Shown: in pieces, positions 54,550 through 63,999 of the stretch
Layout: each line of letters starts with the position of its first letter
How positions within the stretch are numbered: the stretch's first letter is position 1
Sequence record: PP047755
Reading direction: 5' to 3' (one strand)
Source of the DNA: Escherichia phage KEP1
DNA length: 64,000 bases
The notes under the pieces: generated by a model
Told to the model about the DNA's origin: nothing
Databases searched by the model: none
The model's input: only the letters and a program-made list of their open reading frames with translations
Translations under genes and position numbers: made by a program

Positions 54550-54595
54550 AACAAAAAAGGCTCCCGTAAAAAGGAGCCTTAAATTTTATTTTTCA
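54550..54595. terminator. bidirectional rho-independent terminator between convergent genes
   Basis: AGGCTCC-CGTAAAAA-GGAGCCT flanked by AAAACAAAAAA upstream and TAAATTTTATTTTT downstream. Confidence 0.75.
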
Positions 54596-54957
54596 GTATT
54601 CTTTGTGTTCTTTTCAGTAATAGCTTGCAAGGCTGATACTGATTGAGCCAGATTGTTCACACTGTCAGAGAATTTATCAAGAGTCTTAGTAAGTTTTGCA
54701 TTCTCACCCTTAACATTCTCTAACTGAACTTTCTGGTTCTCCATCCCTAGCTGAATCAGTCTCATGTCAGACTGTAAATCACGAATAGCTGAGTAATTAG
54801 ATTTGCTATAATTATCTAGCTGCTGTAACTTTGTTGTGACAGACACTTCTTGCTTACCATCCGAGACTTGCATGGTGGTATACATCCCAATAACACTAAA
54901 AATACCAACTACAATTGCACCAATATTATTTTTAAAAGCTTCCTCTAGCCACTTCAT
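54586..54957 (-). CDS. membrane-anchored coiled-coil protein (123 aa)
   Basis: IGAIVVGIFSVIGMYTT helix followed by Gln/Leu-rich coiled coil. Confidence 0.55.
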   Translation of the reverse strand: MKWLEEAFKNNIGAIVVGIFSVIGMYTTMQVSDGKQEVSVTTKLQQLDNYSKSNYSAIRDLQSDMRLIQLGMENQKVQLENVKGENAKLTKTLDKFSDSVNNLAQSVSALQAITEKNTKNTEK

Positions 54958-55151
54958 TTATTCTCCCCCTTAAAAGCTTTTTCTAAGTTATCTACGAACT
55001 CATCATCAATAGGTGTGTCTGTCTTACTCGCAAGATATCTTGCAAGCTTAAAGAACACTTTCTCAATCATGTATTCACTTAGAAGGGATAAAATGAGTTT
55101 CCAGAAGAAGCTACCTAGATTTTTTAGAAGAATTGCTAGGATTGTAGGCAT
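54954..55151 (-). CDS. small membrane protein (65 aa; holin-like candidate)
   Basis: PTILAILLKNLGSFFWKLILSLL hydrophobic segment, charged C-terminus. Confidence 0.45.
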   Translation of the reverse strand: MPTILAILLKNLGSFFWKLILSLLSEYMIEKVFFKLARYLASKTDTPIDDEFVDNLEKAFKGENK

Positions 55152-55230: not shown

Positions 55231-57777
55231 TTAAGCAGTTCTCACCCAAGCCATTAACTTGTAGAACTGGTTAGTAACACTAAATGCTGAACCAGAACCA
55301 GTACCACCTGTGTTACCGCTAACTGTGTGGCTGTGAGCACCAATACCAACAGTGTGGCTGTGGTTACCTGTTGTATTTGTTACACCAGACCAAGTTTTTG
55401 ACGCATTAAAGTTAGCAGGGATACCATAAGTGAAGTTAGAGCCAGTAAAACCCTTAGAAGCAGTTGAGCTACCAAGTGTAAATGCACCACTTGCTGTGTA
55501 GAAGCTGCTAGAGTCACTTCTAAAGTAACCTACTGTACCAGTAATCTCCATAGTCCCTCTGTTATGGTTATGGTTACCAGTTGTGCTGGAAGTCTTAGTG
55601 CCATAATCAAATGATGAAGTGGTAGCAGAGAAGCTATGCGTGTGTGAAGGTAAGTTGCCAACAGATAACGTTACAGAGTCTGAACCACCAGTTGTAGCAA
55701 CATCTGAACCGTTTGCTGCTGCAATTCTAATAGTTCTGCCAACACCATTGTTCAGGTACGTCCAAGTTAGACCAGGAAGTGCTGTATTAGGGTTAACATT
55801 ACTGTTAAACCATGTCACAATACCCACTGGATAGATTTTATTCAGGTCTGTAGAGTCACTAATCGCCTCTGCAATCTTCTGGTCAGTCTCTGCTTTAGTG
55901 TATGCACCAATATCTGAAGGGGTTGGTTTTTGCAAACTTGTGTAGTATTTTGCAATTGTACCCTTCACAATACCTTGTGGAGCATCATCAAATGTCTGTG
56001 GGACTTCAAACAACTGTACACTTGCATTACTAGAAGACTGAACCCTTGTCGTTGTGCTGTTTTGATACGTACCAGCAAGATAGTAAATATCATAGGTGTC
56101 TCCAGAAGTATTCACATAACCAATATCCCTGACAATGGTGTTATCTGATGTTCTCCAAGCAACAACATTTAAGCCCTTTGGATTGTTATTTGAAGTTCGC
56201 AGAACAATTTCACATTTACCTGCTTGTTGTGGTGTATTAATATTAAAACCTGACCCACCAAATACCTCAATAACAGCAGTGGATGCTGATTGTGGCATCA
56301 CAACAGTGGCAATTTTAGCCCACTTATCAGTGTTTCCCACATTGAAGCTAGTGCTTCTGATTCTTAGGTATCTGCTATCACTAGCACTTTGCGTAAAGTA
56401 TCTAGCATCTAAGTTAGAAAAATCTGAAGGTTGAACTTGTCCAGCAATAGTCAATGTTTTGTTAATGTATGATGTTGTATCCCCGAGAACCAATTGGGTT
56501 CCAGAATAACTGTTATTTAGGGTAACATCATTCGTATCAGCACCACCAACACCAATCCACCATCTTGATACATTAGCAGTGTCCACACCACGAATATATA
56601 ATGGTCTATTCTGAGTAGAGTTTTTAACAATCAGACCTTCATTATCCGTAACAACTGTCTGTACACCATTAAAAGTATTCCTTGCATTAGTTCTTGCAAT
56701 CGTACTTAATGTTGCTACCGGAATATATCTAGAGTCAATGTTAGCCCAATCTGAAGGTTGAACTTGTCCAGTGATTTGCACAGTTTTATTGATACCAATA
56801 GTAGTACCTAGTGAAACCTGTGAACCTGTAAGGTAGTTGTAAATGTTTAGACGTGTCTCATCAGAATCTGTACCAACATACCATTTATTTGTTCCATCAG
56901 ACTTCTTACCGAGAATGTAAAGTGCTGTACTTGCATCAGTATTCTGCAAAGTAATAGCATTAGCATTCTTCTTAGCAACAAGGTTAGTGAAAGTGTTAGC
57001 ACCTGTAAAAGTATTATTGCCAGCTAACTGTGCAAATCTCTGATTAGCAACTGTCTGAGTAAAATATCTAGCATCTAAGTTAGAGAAGTCTGAAGGTTGA
57101 ACTTGACCAGTGATTCTAAGTGACTTGTTAAATGCTGCTGTTGCATCAAGGGTTAACATTGCACCAGTAGCATGATTGTACAAATAAACATTAGTACTGT
57201 TTGCATTTCCCTGTCCAACATACCAAGTTTGCTGGTTATTAGCATCTCTACCTTGAATATATGAAGCACCTGCATTGGTTGCCTTCTTAAGAGTTAACTG
57301 CTCACCATCAGTTACAATTGCTTGCCTAATACTGAAGTTATTTGTAACAGCAAGCCTTGCATATCTTGCATCATTCTCTTCATTAGTTCTCATACCAAGT
57401 TCATTAGGGCTTGGTTTATTCAAAGTATGATAAACAGTTGCCGACCTTGTGGCATCTGCAATAGTGAGTTTAAGACCATTTGAGTTAATTTTAAAAGTCT
57501 TTAAAATATCCCCAATAGTAATCTCAGAAGAGCCTGTTGGGTCAAATACTGCCTTACCACCGTAAAGTAACTTGACAATACCTAAATCCCCAACCATAGT
57601 ACTCCCAGCAATCTGAACAAACCTTTCTAGTTTGAAGGAAGCTAAGAAGTCTTGATAGGTCATTCTACGGTCTTCGTCACCCAACATTTCAGGTCTTTTC
57701 TTAACTCTGATGTGCAATAGGTCTTCTGAACGAATTGTGTCGATTGAGTTTAATTGACTCAATTTGTAATCTGCCAT
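55231..57777 (-). CDS. tail fibre protein with internal shaft repeats and His-x-His C-terminal tip
   Basis: Three ~110-aa repeats (ITGQVQPSDFSNLDARYFTQ); C-terminal HTHSF, GNHNHN, GNHSHTVGIGAHSHTV; ends MAWVRTA. Confidence 0.8.
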   Translation of the reverse strand: MADYKLSQLNSIDTIRSEDLLHIRVKKRPEMLGDEDRRMTYQDFLASFKLERFVQIAGSTMVGDLGIVKLLYGGKAVFDPTGSSEITIGDILKTFKINSNGLKLTIADATRSATVYHTLNKPSPNELGMRTNEENDARYARLAVTNNFSIRQAIVTDGEQLTLKKATNAGASYIQGRDANNQQTWYVGQGNANSTNVYLYNHATGAMLTLDATAAFNKSLRITGQVQPSDFSNLDARYFTQTVANQRFAQLAGNNTFTGANTFTNLVAKKNANAITLQNTDASTALYILGKKSDGTNKWYVGTDSDETRLNIYNYLTGSQVSLGTTIGINKTVQITGQVQPSDWANIDSRYIPVATLSTIARTNARNTFNGVQTVVTDNEGLIVKNSTQNRPLYIRGVDTANVSRWWIGVGGADTNDVTLNNSYSGTQLVLGDTTSYINKTLTIAGQVQPSDFSNLDARYFTQSASDSRYLRIRSTSFNVGNTDKWAKIATVVMPQSASTAVIEVFGGSGFNINTPQQAGKCEIVLRTSNNNPKGLNVVAWRTSDNTIVRDIGYVNTSGDTYDIYYLAGTYQNSTTTRVQSSSNASVQLFEVPQTFDDAPQGIVKGTIAKYYTSLQKPTPSDIGAYTKAETDQKIAEAISDSTDLNKIYPVGIVTWFNSNVNPNTALPGLTWTYLNNGVGRTIRIAAANGSDVATTGGSDSVTLSVGNLPSHTHSFSATTSSFDYGTKTSSTTGNHNHNRGTMEITGTVGYFRSDSSSFYTASGAFTLGSSTASKGFTGSNFTYGIPANFNASKTWSGVTNTTGNHSHTVGIGAHSHTVSGNTGGTGSGSAFSVTNQFYKLMAWVRTA

Positions 57778-57823
57778 TATAAATTTTCCTCTTAAAAGGG
57801 GCTACAAAGCCCCTGTAAAGAAA

Positions 57824-58999
57824 TTAAGCTGTTCTCTGCCACACATATACTACAAAAGATGGTTGCTCAACACTGAAAGCTTGACCACCACCAACAGAAC
57901 CAGATGTCCCTGAGTGTGTATGCTCAGAGCTAGAAACAGTAACAGTGCCCGTATGACTGTGTGAACCAATATTAACAGTGTGGCTGTGAGCACCAATTGC
58001 AACAGTATGGCTATGAGCACCAGATGATGCAGTTGTGCCTGAGAAGCTATGGGTGTGAGCACCAGCTAAATCAGTATACATAGCATTACCAACACCAGCA
58101 TCAGCAGATGCAGTAATAGCATTTGTACCGCCCCTATCATTACCCCTCATAGGTACTCTGTGGTTGTGGTTACCAGCATTACTTGTTGTACCACTAAACG
58201 TGTGAGTATGAGCACCAGCACTATTAGTCGTTTTTGTACCGTAGTCAAAAGTTGATGTACTCTTTGAACCATAATCAAAACTAGAGATAGATACACTTGC
58301 AGAGTGTGTATGACCACCACCTGTTAGATAGATAGAGTGTGTGTGTGCTGGTAAATTATTATTCGTTAATGCTACAGTCTGAGAACCAAACATTGAACCA
58401 ACAGGTCTAGAATCTGTATCATAACCAACTAGTGCTCTACCTTTAGAAACTAACTCCCAAGTACCTCCACAAAGCAAGTAAGTTGATGGGTTAGCAGAGT
58501 TAACAGATAGATGAATAGTTCCTACTGGATATGATGCTTGGATAGCTTTGTATAAATTATTCACCGCTCTCGCGGTAGCGTACTTATCAGCATCTTCATT
58601 GTACAGATTAGATGTTGTCCAGTTCTGAACATTACTTAAACCGACCTGTGCTTTCGTTGTATTGTGTGGGTTACTTTTGTCGTCAATATGTTGCTGAATT
58701 AAGTTATTCACTTCTTCTGACGACATAATTTGTAGATTTGCTCTTGCCTCAGCAACATTCACAATGTCTGACAAGTTATTGGCTGCAACTAATTGGAGAG
58801 AGTTAATAACATTATCAAGACCCACTTGCGATTTGGTTACACCATGAGGATTATTCCTCAGAGATGCGTGAGGTGCTAACAACTGTTCAAGCGTACATCT
58901 TTTATCCTCAACACCTTGCTTAAGGTGGAAGATATCACTTAAATCAACTGGTAAGGCCGCTTGTGGCAAGGCACTAATTTGAATTTCACCTACTGCCAT
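57824..58999 (-). CDS. second tail fibre protein with His-x-His repeat tip
   Basis: GAHTHT, GNHNHR, GAHSHTVAIGAHSHTVNIGSHSHTG; C-terminus VYVWQRTA parallels the larger fibre. Confidence 0.8.
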   Translation of the reverse strand: MAVGEIQISALPQAALPVDLSDIFHLKQGVEDKRCTLEQLLAPHASLRNNPHGVTKSQVGLDNVINSLQLVAANNLSDIVNVAEARANLQIMSSEEVNNLIQQHIDDKSNPHNTTKAQVGLSNVQNWTTSNLYNEDADKYATARAVNNLYKAIQASYPVGTIHLSVNSANPSTYLLCGGTWELVSKGRALVGYDTDSRPVGSMFGSQTVALTNNNLPAHTHSIYLTGGGHTHSASVSISSFDYGSKSTSTFDYGTKTTNSAGAHTHTFSGTTSNAGNHNHRVPMRGNDRGGTNAITASADAGVGNAMYTDLAGAHTHSFSGTTASSGAHSHTVAIGAHSHTVNIGSHSHTGTVTVSSSEHTHSGTSGSVGGGQAFSVEQPSFVVYVWQRTA

Positions 59000-59001
59000 T
59001 A

Positions 59002-59304
59002 TTAAGCTCCTACATATTCATATGTGTAAAGGTTTCCTGTACTTGTTGATGCAGTCCCTGTCTCAGATTTAATCAGATTCCAGCCATTAGCCACTAAATC
59101 TGGTTGCTCAGTTGCATATGAGCGAACTTCACCAACAGTGCCGTTTACTTTATTAAGCAGGTAGTTGATAATATAGTTGAACCACTGCCTACCCATAGGT
59201 TCACCCTTTAAAAGACCTGTCTCTTGAACTTCCGGTGGTGGTAAAACTTTTAACTGGTTACCATCAGTATCTACTTCATTTGTAGACCAATTTAAAACTG
59301 CCAT
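59002..59304 (-). CDS. hypothetical structural protein (100 aa)
   Basis: ATGA-coupled within baseplate/fibre operon. Confidence 0.55.
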
Positions 59305-60158
59305 TAAGAATTTCCTTCTTGTTGTGATTTATCTTTTCTGCCTTTGACAATTTGTGCAACCTCAGCCATGATTCCATATGCACCACCTGCAATAGCTTCT
59401 TTACCAACGATGAAATAGCCACTATTATTGGACCTATCTACAGTCATATAATCATCACTCTGTGAGTTTGCTGTTCTGTCAACCCTAAAGTAACCATCAA
59501 TAACACCAGCATCTGCAAGGCTACCTACTAAGTTGGATTCCAGAGAGCCACCAGTGTTATTTGTGACAAGACCTCTGTTAGCATCAGTTACAAACCAGTT
59601 CTCTTTATCATCAACAATAGCAAGTGATGAATCAGCAACCTCTACAGGTGTCCAAGCAGTTCCATTTAAAGTAACATCTCTTAAGATAACAGCAGAACCA
59701 GTAGTTGTTGCAGAAATCTTTGACAGTGTATATGCAGCATCTAGAACGCTTTTTCTAGTGTTGATACGGATAACGATACCACCAGTCTTAGGAGTAATAT
59801 GCTCAAAAATCTGAGAGAAAGTTGCACCATATAGTGTCATAATTGCTTTTTGCAAGAATGTTGGAGTAGTGTCAGAGCGTCTTAGGAAGATTTGGATATA
59901 AAGCATAGCTCTATATGTTTCATCATCTGCGCCTAAAGGTCTAGGAACTTTAATCAGTGAGCCAATATTATCAAGTTGTTGGCCTACTGACGTCCTGATA
60001 TTTCTCTCTGTGTGCATCTGCCAGCAAACATCCTCTAGAGTTTGTAATTCATCAGTGATTGCTTTCAAGATACTTGTATAGATAAATTTATCTTTAAACT
60101 GTGTTACAGTCCTTTCATCAAGTGTTTTGTAATAAACACTATCAATCTTCTCAAACAT
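59304..60158 (-). CDS. putative baseplate protein (P2 gpI-like by position)
   Basis: Position between J-like gene and fibres; overlapping starts. Confidence 0.5.
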
Positions 60159-60160
60159 TA

Positions 60161-61629
60161 TTACTCCTTAGTGATGGTATACTGGCTGCTTTCCCAAACA
60201 GTATATTGGTCACCATCAACAGTAATTCTTGCTGTAGTATACTGCCCGTCACTAGGTGGGACTGATTGGCTGTTTGATAAGGCTACTTTAACCTCATTAA
60301 TCTCAATACCTTTAATTACGTCATAGATATATCCATAGATTCTGTTAGGGATAACATCATTACCAACCTTAAGAGTTCTCCCATAAGCATTAATACCTTG
60401 TACAATGCTGTCTCTGATATCCTCTTCAGGGATTGTCAAGCTTTCTTCATCATATAAAGAGTAAGATACTTTAACAAATGCGTATTTTGGTGTTGGTCTG
60501 CTAAAATAAATATTATGTGCCAAACCACCTAAATCATGGGCTGTACCAAAAATTGAGCCATAAGCCCTAATACCAGCAGGTTTTGTATCCCAGATTGCTT
60601 GAGCAACATTATCATTTTGACCACCAACTACAACAATCTTAAAAGATTTTGGTGGAAGACCTTCTGAGCTTGTCTCTTCAGTATCATTCTCAACACCTGA
60701 AGCATCTGAGACACCTTGAACTCTTTTAACAGCAGCTACAATTGCATCCAAAGTCCCTACACCAGTAACTGCTAAAGATTCTAAATATCTCTGTCTAAGT
60801 TCTGTGTCAGTTTCTTCGTTTCTACCAGTTGTTAAGTCATACCTGTTATAAATACTGTCAAGACCATCAACAGTTGTCTCAATCTCAATAAGCGTACCAG
60901 CCAAAGCAGGGGTAGCACCAACCTCTTCAGCTACTACATCTGAAATAGTTGTAATTTTTGTAAAGGTCAGAAACGTTGTTGCAGTGACAACCATAGGGTT
61001 TGTTCTTGCAATGATATCACCCTCGTCTTTATAGACTCTTAATGCGGCTCCATCATTAATAACTTCTGCTTTTGCTACAATACCACCATTAATAGCTTCT
61101 GCCAATTTTGTTAGCAGCGTGGTGATTGTGTCTAATGAGGTTGGTTTATATGAGAAAATGACGTTATCAATAATAATAACATAATCTGCATCAGTTCGTA
61201 AAGAGTTAACTTCAAGGATAGCTTCAACACAATATGATGGAGTAAGGGTAATGTTATTAACTGGATAAAAGATGTTTCCGGCAGTACTTCTTAATCTTGT
61301 TGTTGAAGGAATGGTAGCACCAGTCGTTCCAGTAAACTCAACTTGACCTCTTGTTGCCTGAGCAACATATCTGTATACCGCATTTAAAGCTGTAATATCA
61401 TCAAGGTTAAAGCCTTCAGCCTTATCAATTGTACCTCCATCGTAGATTTCTGATAGAATCTCATGAGTATCTGCTAAAGACCTTGCAATTGAAGCTAGGA
61501 AGAGTCCTAATTGACTATCTTCAGAAACGTCAAGGTTGGGTGAAATATCTCTAAGAAGTCTTGATTTGATATTATCAAAAATTTCCTGATATCTTAGAGT
61601 TTGTAATCCGGTTGTAGTTAATCCTGCCA

Positions 61630-61630
<1 letters not shown>
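60161..61630 (-). CDS. putative baseplate J-like protein
   Basis: 489 aa, gene order V-W-J-I-fibre typical of contractile-tail baseplate modules. Confidence 0.5.

Positions 61631-63999
<2,369 letters not shown>

Follow-up and report, generated by a model that had tools for sequence, protein, structure and literature searches.

The tail-fiber locus of Escherichia phage KEP1 raises the question of whether two adjoining fiber genes with similar C-terminal regions are recent duplicates that share a receptor-binding tip or two distinct fibers built on a common plan. We analyzed a 64,000-nucleotide stretch of this phage (sequence record PP047755), hereafter the window, which is that of a wV8/E9-like Felixounavirus: by megablast, it is 94-96% identical to vB_EcoM_E9, wV8, and several E. 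coli O157 typing phages. This genus is the Felix O1 group of the Ounavirinae; Felix O1-like phages are used in Salmonella typing and in E. coli O157 biocontrol. The two genes are adjoining minus-strand open reading frames (ORFs) encoding proteins of 391 and 848 amino acids (aa), with coordinates unchanged from the initial annotation (Table 1). In the records of the megablast-matched relatives, both are labeled as tail fiber proteins, and the short one appears as "putative tail fiber protein GP37" in the wV8 record and likewise as "GP37" in that of Felix O1. We refer to the two proteins as the short tail fiber (STF) and the long tail fiber (LTF), names adopted from their published counterparts in phage Bas63. 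The two genes very probably encode the two side-fiber sets of the virion, each with a C-terminal module of the T4 gp37 type, a reading that draws on gene structure, sequence-based family membership, histidine invariance, and a mosaic pattern established here. With it, the annotation of the locus is settled as the short and long tail fibers of a Felixounavirus, which are candidates for the main host-range determinants.

His-x-His motifs and the T4 gp37-type module

Dense His-x-His (HxH) repeats had been described in both proteins, and the counts bear this out. STF carries nine such motifs (aa 219, 230, 264, 278, 315, 329, 338, 347, and 360) and LTF carries four (aa 712, 736, 806, and 815). Shuffled sequences of the same composition gave an expectation of 1.4 and a maximum of six for STF, and of 0.13 and a maximum of two in 2000 shuffles for LTF, while all remaining ORFs of 80 aa or longer in the window have two motifs at most. 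The strings GAHSHTV, GNHNHN, and HTHSF singled out in the initial annotation are all present in the fiber proteins. In each protein the motifs form two runs, four plus five around aa 281-313 of STF and two plus two around aa 739-803 of LTF. Across 33 complete loci from Felixounavirus and Mooglevirus, STF has seven or nine motifs and LTF has four, six, or seven; the difference between the seven- and nine-motif STF alleles adjoins the segment between the runs, the head. In a 70-sequence alignment of the LTF tip, where the mean column identity is 23%, none of the eight histidines that make up the four LTF motifs varies.

A fiber of T4 provides the structural reference, as seven HxH motifs of its gp37 coordinate Fe ions along a needle (PMC12609058). 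A phmmer search aligned STF aa 145-362 with residues 17-227 of the crystallized gp37 tip fragment (2XGF, corresponding to T4 gp37 residues 785-1026) at E=8.2e-27. All seven T4 motifs each face an STF motif in this alignment, and the two surplus STF motifs are those nearest the collar in the ascending and the descending run. STF also matched the Pfam family Gp10_C (66.9 bits, cut-off 27). As a single sequence, LTF aligned with 2XGF over aa 706-827 (phmmer, E=5.9e-07). A profile of the LTF tip, built from LTF aa 611-848 and 69 homologs (the homolog search, whose top match was 68% identical, was used solely for this alignment), matched residues 20-242 at E=9.6e-35, the last gp37 strand included; its second matched stretch placed the C-terminus of the LTF family on 2XGF residues 203-242, which end in IVRLA. 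STF and LTF are homologous to each other over their C-terminal ~230-250 aa (BLASTP, 30% identity, 21% gaps, E=3e-17). By sequence, both are members of the gp37 family of collar, needle, and head, and we classify both as tail fibers with a T4 gp37-type HxH needle module on the strength of these alignments. The T4 gp37-type affiliation proposed in the initial annotation thus holds for each protein.

The alignments also bear on the location of the near-identical C-termini, which had been placed at the fiber tip. A chain with the gp37-type fold reverses direction at the head and runs back to the collar (PMC12609058). The endings AWVRTA in LTF and VWQRTA in STF are present, and these conserved termini are kept in 33 LTF and 34 STF alleles. 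However, because they align with the final gp37 strand and given the published fold (PMC12609058), they would form a collar strand at the base of the needle rather than a tip. What the two proteins have in common is the collar-and-needle scaffold. Their head segments (aa ~281-313 of STF and ~739-803 of LTF) gave no alignment to one another by BLASTP and are the most variable block among alleles; the fibers therefore appear to share a scaffold and not a tip, and the earlier description of related tips does not stand. At the DNA level, a 27-nt tandem repeat at 57951-58022 (2.7 copies, 80% matches) encodes nine-residue GAHSHTVxI units in the descending needle of STF and is the sole true DNA-level tandem repeat of its length in the two fiber genes.

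Attachment sites, trimeric state, and fiber lengths can be borrowed from cryogenic electron microscopy (cryo-EM) of relatives, and together with the features above they suggest how the fibers would be built. STF would attach to baseplate wedge 2, and LTF would attach via a 100-aa platform protein encoded just upstream. Each fiber is predicted to be a homotrimer with an N-terminal baseplate-binding region, a shaft, and a C-terminal gp37-type module, in which each chain would leave the collar, run up a thin β-stranded needle to a small distal head, and descend along the needle to the collar, ending in the WVRTA or WQRTA strand. In each of the three chains, the HxH motifs of both the ascending and the descending strand would face inward. 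In T4, such a six-histidine layer holds one iron ion, stapling the needle (PMC12609058); nine stapling layers would be present in STF and four in this allele of LTF. The head between the HxH runs is expected to contact the receptor, most likely lipopolysaccharide (LPS) sugars, and because the head is completely different in STF and LTF, the phage probably recognizes two distinct features of the cell surface. The shaft of LTF also includes three PF20744 units and a fifth module (D5) homologous to T-even gp37; in the genus, shaft modules and head occur as discrete, highly divergent allele cassettes that are parted by conserved linkers and reshuffled by recombination between phages.

This architecture is consistent with that of better-studied relatives, and two fibers with gp37-like tips are already published for Bas63 and Sf14 (2025), with gp37 homology noted for VpaE1 in 2015. 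The closest systems, wV8 (gp82/gp83), vB_EcoM_E9, and the O157 typing phages, have the same locus and gene order as the window. STF of wV8 and E9 is essentially the window allele (96-100% in every 25-aa bin, nine HxH motifs), and their LTF is of the same length class (847-849 aa), with four motifs and the same C-terminus. In Bas63 (JohannRWettstein), cryo-EM revealed a 430-angstrom STF (gp26) on wedge 2 and a 630-angstrom LTF (gp27) on gp25, a platform like T4 gp9. Both have a T4 gp37-like tip of collar, needle, and head with HxH motifs, and LTF has β-helix repeat domains like those of T4 gp34 (PMC12609058). Bas63 belongs to the same genus and agrees with the window in its two-fiber architecture, baseplate gene sizes, and repeated LTF shaft domains. 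The two differ in HxH motifs (seven in STF and six in LTF of Bas63, nine and four in the window) and in the shaft, where five β-helix domains were recognized by structure in Bas63 and three PF20744 repeats plus D5 are recognized by sequence here; our comparison rests on the published paper and on the Bas63-like alleles L026 and L029.

More distant systems share progressively less. The Shigella phage Sf14 (Mooglevirus) encodes gp52 (391 aa) and gp53 (792 aa), two fiber types "which may bind different receptors" and which are stowed along the sheath (PMC11821841). Its gp52 is identical in length to STF of the window and 74.9% identical in sequence. Sf14 belongs to another genus. The LTF head of its relative Sf19 is of the same four-motif type as that of the window, whereas LTF as a whole is ~56% identical to that of Sf19 and the shaft cassettes and D5 differ. 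The T4 gp37 module (2XGF) is homologous, and its HxH motifs and terminal strand (IVRLA versus WVRTA/WQRTA) align with both window fibers; T4, however, has seven motifs rather than nine or four, and its head is unrelated in sequence to the window heads, although the LTF of VpaE1, within the genus, has a near-T4 head. In addition, the T4 module ends a four-protein jointed fiber, whereas the window module stands on a single-protein, baseplate-bound fiber. Fiber modules of Providencia, Morganella, Erwinia, Photorhabdus, and Klebsiella prophages align with ~90% of the LTF tip, most of them at 41-52% identity. Its four HxH motifs are invariant among them, and they carry Pfam Gp10_C (PF21939) with or without Phage_fiber_2 (PF03406) and DUF3751 (PF12571). 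These fibers, which belong to temperate phages or tailocin-like elements, have other N-terminal shafts and other attachment domains. The wider biology, namely two fibers, T4-like metal-stapled needles, and probable dual LPS recognition, is thus already in the literature. New, and descriptive only, are the nine-plus-four HxH configuration of wV8-type fibers and the cassette-like reassortment of LTF modules, the window being a unique recombinant.

Dual receptor specificity had been proposed in the initial annotation, and the same hypothesis stands in published work (PMC11821841, PMC12609058). Homology to the T4 gp37 adhesin was noted for both gp74 and gp75 of VpaE1, a phage that uses the LPS core as its receptor (PMC4690856, 2015); a 2026 preprint lists Felixounavirus among the clades that use O-polysaccharide (OPS) or LPS moieties. 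For the window fibers, we infer receptor identity, a division of labor between the two, and metal binding. Several observations limit how far the T4 model can be carried over. An AlphaFold2 monomer of the LTF tip (70-sequence alignment; the fold itself is an interwoven trimer) reached a mean pLDDT (predicted local distance difference test) score of 62; the collar scored 74-87, whereas large parts of the needle and head fell below 50, and a Foldseek search of the PDB with this model returned only insignificant matches to T4 gp10 (E≥0.27). No fiber chain of the Bas63 or Sf14 structure entries matched STF or LTF in a PDB sequence search, and fiber density in both maps was too weak for atomic models (PMC12609058, PMC11821841). 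Metal binding and trimer geometry in the window fibers are predictions by analogy. With four HxH layers only and a 65-aa head unlike that of T4, the distal end of LTF may depart from the T4 model. 

Alternative explanations for the paired fibers

The initial annotation had offered a recent tandem duplication of one fiber gene, in which case the related ends would reflect recent common descent. The genes are indeed neighbors that share a strand, homology connects their C-terminal modules, and the short stretches coding for GAHSHTV are 81-89% identical between the genes over 28-54 nt. At 30% identity with 21% gaps, however, the tips are too far apart for such an origin, and each resembles fibers of other phages more closely than its neighbor: the LTF tip those of Providencia, Morganella, Erwinia, and other prophages (most of the aligned set 44-52%), and the STF tip T-even gp37 and lambda Stf (39-58% over the aligning stretches). 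Both genes, moreover, occupy the same positions in 33/33 complete Ounavirinae loci, including those of Mooglevirus. On these comparisons we regard a recent duplication as highly improbable, to the point of exclusion. An equally small chance is given to STF and LTF being the proximal and distal halves of one jointed fiber, like gp34 and gp37 of T4, a phage that makes one fiber from several gene products. In its favor, LTF joins T-even gp37-like segments with a shaft that the Bas63 authors likened to T4 gp34 (PMC12609058). Yet each protein has a complete collar, needle, and head along with the N-terminal baseplate motif ED(K/R)(R/K)xT (PMC11821841), in the form of EDKRCT in STF (aa 31-36), which matches the baseplate-binding motif described for Sf14 gp52, and of EDRRMT in LTF (aa 35-40), which parallels EDRKMT of Sf14 gp53 (PMC11821841). 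In addition, cryo-EM of Bas63 and Sf14 resolved separate fibers of ~430 and ~630 angstroms at different baseplate sites.

A weightier alternative, though still an unlikely one, is that LTF alone sets host recognition and that STF, stowed on the sheath, serves chiefly a structural or triggering function and contributes little to specificity, so that true dual receptor specificity would be lacking. In Bas63, the STF head lies between sheath domains at full occupancy, while LTF occupancy varies (PMC12609058). STF is also the less diverse protein. Identity is 99% or higher in 19 phage records and 74-79% for the majority of the group's Salmonella, E. coli, and Shigella phages (68-79% for the bulk of the remaining Felixounavirus and Mooglevirus STFs), and the exact sequence belongs to a 259-member cluster; LTF, by comparison, has 12-18 allele classes per variable module. 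This uniformity breaks down where receptor contact would be expected. STF aa 276-325, comprising the head and adjacent needle, is the lowest-identity block, falling to 32-48% against three other Felixounavirus STFs while the rest remains at 84-100%, and the change from seven to nine HxH layers lies beside the head, a pattern expected of a receptor-contacting surface. The STF module is, furthermore, a full homolog of a known adhesin tip. The least plausible proposal is that the HxH strings are compositional low complexity rich in Gly, Ser, Thr, and His and have no metal-binding function. The regions are rich in Gly, Ser, and Thr, one contains the 27-nt tandem repeat of STF, and no metal site could be modeled in the monomer. 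Composition fails to explain, however, HxH counts far above those of the shuffles, the invariance of the eight LTF histidines against a 23% column background, or the one-to-one alignment with T4 gp37 motifs that are Fe-coordinating according to the Bas63 paper (PMC12609058). Two separate side fibers with gp37-type modules remain the reading that we favor, and the LTF is the more variable of the two.

The long fiber as a mosaic of cassettes

The larger protein had been credited with three internal ~110-aa shaft repeats, near-identical in DNA and for that reason prone to recombination. The repeats themselves are real. Three tandem units span aa 137-248, 247-360, and 358-470; Pfam PF20744 (gp37_trimer) matched three stretches of LTF (221.3 bits versus a cut-off of 21.7), and a hidden Markov model (HMM) built from the repeats found exactly three copies in LTF and none in STF. 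Near-identity in DNA did not survive inspection. Pairwise protein identity is 36-47% (BLASTP), exact DNA matches between pairs of units extend to no more than 17-24 nt, and Tandem Repeats Finder reported no ~330-nt array across the repeats. Near-identical ~330-nt DNA repeats were consequently rejected, the best conserved DNA block from an exact-seed repeat search being 92 nt long and 67-79% identical. The shared part is mainly a linker motif, GQVQPSD(F/W)(S/A)N(L/I)D(A/S)RY, and repeat 1 showed a weak match to T7 gp17 (4A0T, E=0.003). The repeats are old and diverged. Their copy number is three in 33/33 LTF alleles; therefore, unequal intragenic recombination is not visibly at work, and the presumed instability gives way to recombination between phages.

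A comparison of fiber alleles across related phages, suggested at the outset as a check, revealed this reshuffling between phages with no change in copy number. We typed 33 LTFs in eleven blocks, with classes defined at 85%. Conservation is high in the baseplate-binding region, in linkers 1 and 2 between the repeats, in the collar and ascending needle, and in the last 45 residues, each of which falls into 3-5 classes with a median identity to the window of 80-93%; linker 3 varies more, with 12 classes and a median of 68%. The three repeat cores, D5, and the head are variable, with 12-18 classes each, and these classes are combined differently between phages. D5 (18 classes, median 9% identity to the window) is 31-46% identical to segments of T2, T4-like, and T5-like fibers by tblastn and is swapped for unrelated sequence in many Felixounavirus alleles. 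The head has 14 classes and a median identity of 16%. Pairwise identities of cassette cores are bimodal, at either ~20-50% or 70-100%. The two peaks are sharply separated for the head and for repeats 1 and 3, and less distinctly for D5 and repeat 2.

The same pattern is visible in the DNA of the window, where identity to relatives jumps between 95-100% and ~45-55% at LTF module borders (Table 1). Around repeat 2, positions 56750-57049 are 97-99% identical to wV8. Over its full length, LTF is 47-93% identical to other members of the family, with phage E9 as the best match (92.7%), and its exact protein forms a singleton 90% cluster from one 88,443-bp NCBI contig. No phage record has the cassette combination of the window. 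Unlike wV8 or E9, LTF of the window pairs an E9/HY02-type repeat 1 and an E9-type head with a wV8-type repeat 2 and is thus a unique recombinant. The comparisons indicate that LTF recombination acts between phages, at the conserved linkers that flank divergent cassettes. Cassettes may also move within the protein: one is 85% identical between repeat 1 of L029 and repeat 3 of L010 (two viral contigs), other cross-position comparisons being at or below ~52%, which suggests occasional transfer between positions 1 and 3. In the window LTF, the linkers downstream of these two repeat positions are identical (GQVQPSDFSNLDARYFTQ). Exchange appears to extend beyond the genus as well. In VpaE1, the LTF head and distal needle (L005/L015, aa ~675-750) are almost identical to the T4 gp37 tip; the distal needle and head therefore seem to pass together between this and other phage groups, in this case in an apparent exchange between Felixounavirus and T-even phages.

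The Bas63 paper described highly variable tips and, unexpectedly, variability in LTF repeats 2-5 as well, for which its authors offered drift, host recognition, or defense escape as explanations (PMC12609058). Cassette reassortment bears on this question. Simple drift is disfavored because identities are bimodal, breakpoints are sharp, the same LTF cassette is found in Salmonella and E. coli phages, and one cassette occurs at both positions 1 and 3. We tentatively propose that the shaft cassettes (repeat cores 1-3 and D5), besides the head, are independently selected determinants of specificity or immunity evasion, with ancient classes forming a combinatorial "barcode" of which the window presents an unseen combination; this is possible but far from assured, and the pattern itself does not say which property is selected. 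For fiber engineering, the putative receptor-contacting head is an internal segment between the HxH runs and not the C-terminus. As the C-terminal strand would be part of the collar scaffold, fiber swaps should leave it in place, and the conserved inter-module linkers, as natural recombination joints, are possible swap boundaries.

Locus organization and neighboring genes

On the minus strand, the gene order is wedge 2 (489 aa), wedge 1 (284 aa), the 100-aa protein, STF, LTF, and two small putative membrane proteins, beyond which lie the convergent genes for thymidylate synthase (td) and dihydrofolate reductase (frd). The identical order is found in wV8, E9, HY02, VpaE1, Sf19, ASO1B, and Felix O1, and the sizes of 489, 284, 100, 391, and 848 aa fit the Ounavirinae pattern (489, ~285, 100, ~390, and ~780-850 aa). 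The window wedges agree in size with those of Bas63 (wedge 1, 285 aa; wedge 2, 489 aa) (PMC12609058). The 100-aa protein is the probable counterpart of the LTF platform of Bas63 (gp25, T4 gp9-like), a role borrowed from the same paper (PMC12609058). In STF, the N-terminal part contains two copies of the motif NPHxxTKxQVGLxNV (aa 50-64 and 110-124).

Table 1. Coordinates of the fiber genes, their modules, and adjacent baseplate genes in the window
Feature	Position	Strand	Evidence and remarks
STF gene, 391 aa	57824..58999	-	ORF; phrog_2097 tail fiber, E=6e-139; counterpart of Bas63 gp26, Sf14 gp52, wV8 gp82
STF N-terminal part, aa 1-144	58568..58999	-	Comprises the baseplate-binding region plus a short shaft; conservation of 84-100% across Felixounavirus alleles
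STF gp37-type receptor-binding module, aa 145-391	57827..58567	-	Predicted collar, ascending needle, head, descending needle, return strand; 2XGF and Gp10_C matches
STF head segment, aa ~281-313	58061..58159	-	Between HxH runs; aligns between third and fourth HxH of T4 gp37; putative receptor-contacting end
LTF gene, 848 aa	55231..57777	-	ORF; phrog_4277 tail fiber, full length, 1337 bits; counterpart of Bas63 gp27, Sf14 gp53, wV8 gp83
LTF N-terminal baseplate-binding region, aa 1-135	57373..57777	-	Three classes among 33 alleles, with a median identity of 93%
LTF shaft repeat 1, aa 137-248	57034..57369	-	PF20744 and repeat HMM; core is an exchangeable E9/HY02/VpaE1-type cassette
LTF shaft repeat 2, aa 249-360	56698..57033	-	PF20744 and repeat HMM; core cassette wV8-type
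LTF shaft repeat 3, aa 361-470	56368..56697	-	PF20744 and repeat HMM; common to E9, wV8, KEP3; HY02 divergent (12-56% protein identity)
LTF module D5, aa 476-610	55948..56352	-	Homologous to middle of T-even gp37 and some T5-like fibers; phrogs 3299, 21552, 22609
LTF gp37-type receptor-binding module, aa 611-848	55234..55947	-	Predicted collar, needle (HxH 712, 736), head, needle (806, 815), return strand ending WVRTA
LTF head segment, aa ~739-803	55369..55563	-	65 aa without HxH; E9 allele, similar type in Shigella phage Sf19; putative receptor-contacting end
Repeat 1 core DNA	57125-57349		Identity: E9 95-100%, HY02 99-100%, wV8 43-53%
Repeat 2 core DNA	56750-56974		Identity: E9 52-69%, HY02 45-61%, wV8 97-99%
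Head DNA	55400-55549		Identity: E9 95-96%, HY02 71-87%, wV8 71-87%
100-aa protein directly upstream of STF	59002..59304	-	Synteny and size; phrog_4141, E=3e-60
Baseplate wedge 1, 284 aa	59304-60158	-	Part of 59304..61630 block; Pfam Baseplate_J, E=9e-16; phrog_4017 and phrog_6 across both wedges
Baseplate wedge 2, 489 aa	60161-61630	-	With wedge 1, predicted fiber attachment sites

The 46-nt spacer between STF and LTF contains a hairpin, GGGGCT-ttgt-AGCCCC (57798-57813, minus strand), followed by TTTT, the ribosome-binding site AAGAGGA, and the LTF start codon. A rho-independent terminator is annotated at the same spot in the wV8 record, whereas our terminator scan did not call the hairpin, its run of T being too short; a possible effect of the hairpin is to attenuate transcriptional read-through between STF and LTF. 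A second, strong bidirectional terminator-like hairpin (54557-54580; 8-9 bp stem, T runs on both sides) sits between the end of the late-gene block, marked by a 123-aa ORF, and the convergent thymidylate synthase gene.

Directly downstream of LTF are two small minus-strand ORFs (54586-54957 and 54954-55151) whose hydrophobic starts resemble membrane spans by eye. Both belong to PHROG families of unknown function; the 123-aa protein had weak coiled-coil-type Pfam matches only, and its Sf19 homolog is annotated as a "holin". A scan limited to these two ORFs found no fiber chaperone family above the Pfam threshold, the hits being weak ones of transmembrane or coiled-coil-like character, and they do not look like known fiber chaperones. 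The dedicated chaperones of the T4 fiber are gp57A and gp38. Homologs of Mu-type chaperones were likewise not reported for Sf14 (PMC11821841).

Elsewhere in the window, a tRNA scan of all 64 kb found no tRNA genes. Felix O1 is reported to have 22 tRNAs, and in this phage the cluster presumably falls in the remainder of the ~88-kb genome, beyond the window. A 207-aa protein encoded at 62049-62672 (minus strand) matched the Pfam phage spike N-terminal domain (PF18352, E=6e-20) and has a single HxH motif at aa 188-190, the same position as H188/H190 in the Bas63 puncturing-apparatus protein "PA", for which iron binding was proposed (PMC12609058). The coding-strand GC skew flips sign near 44 kb.

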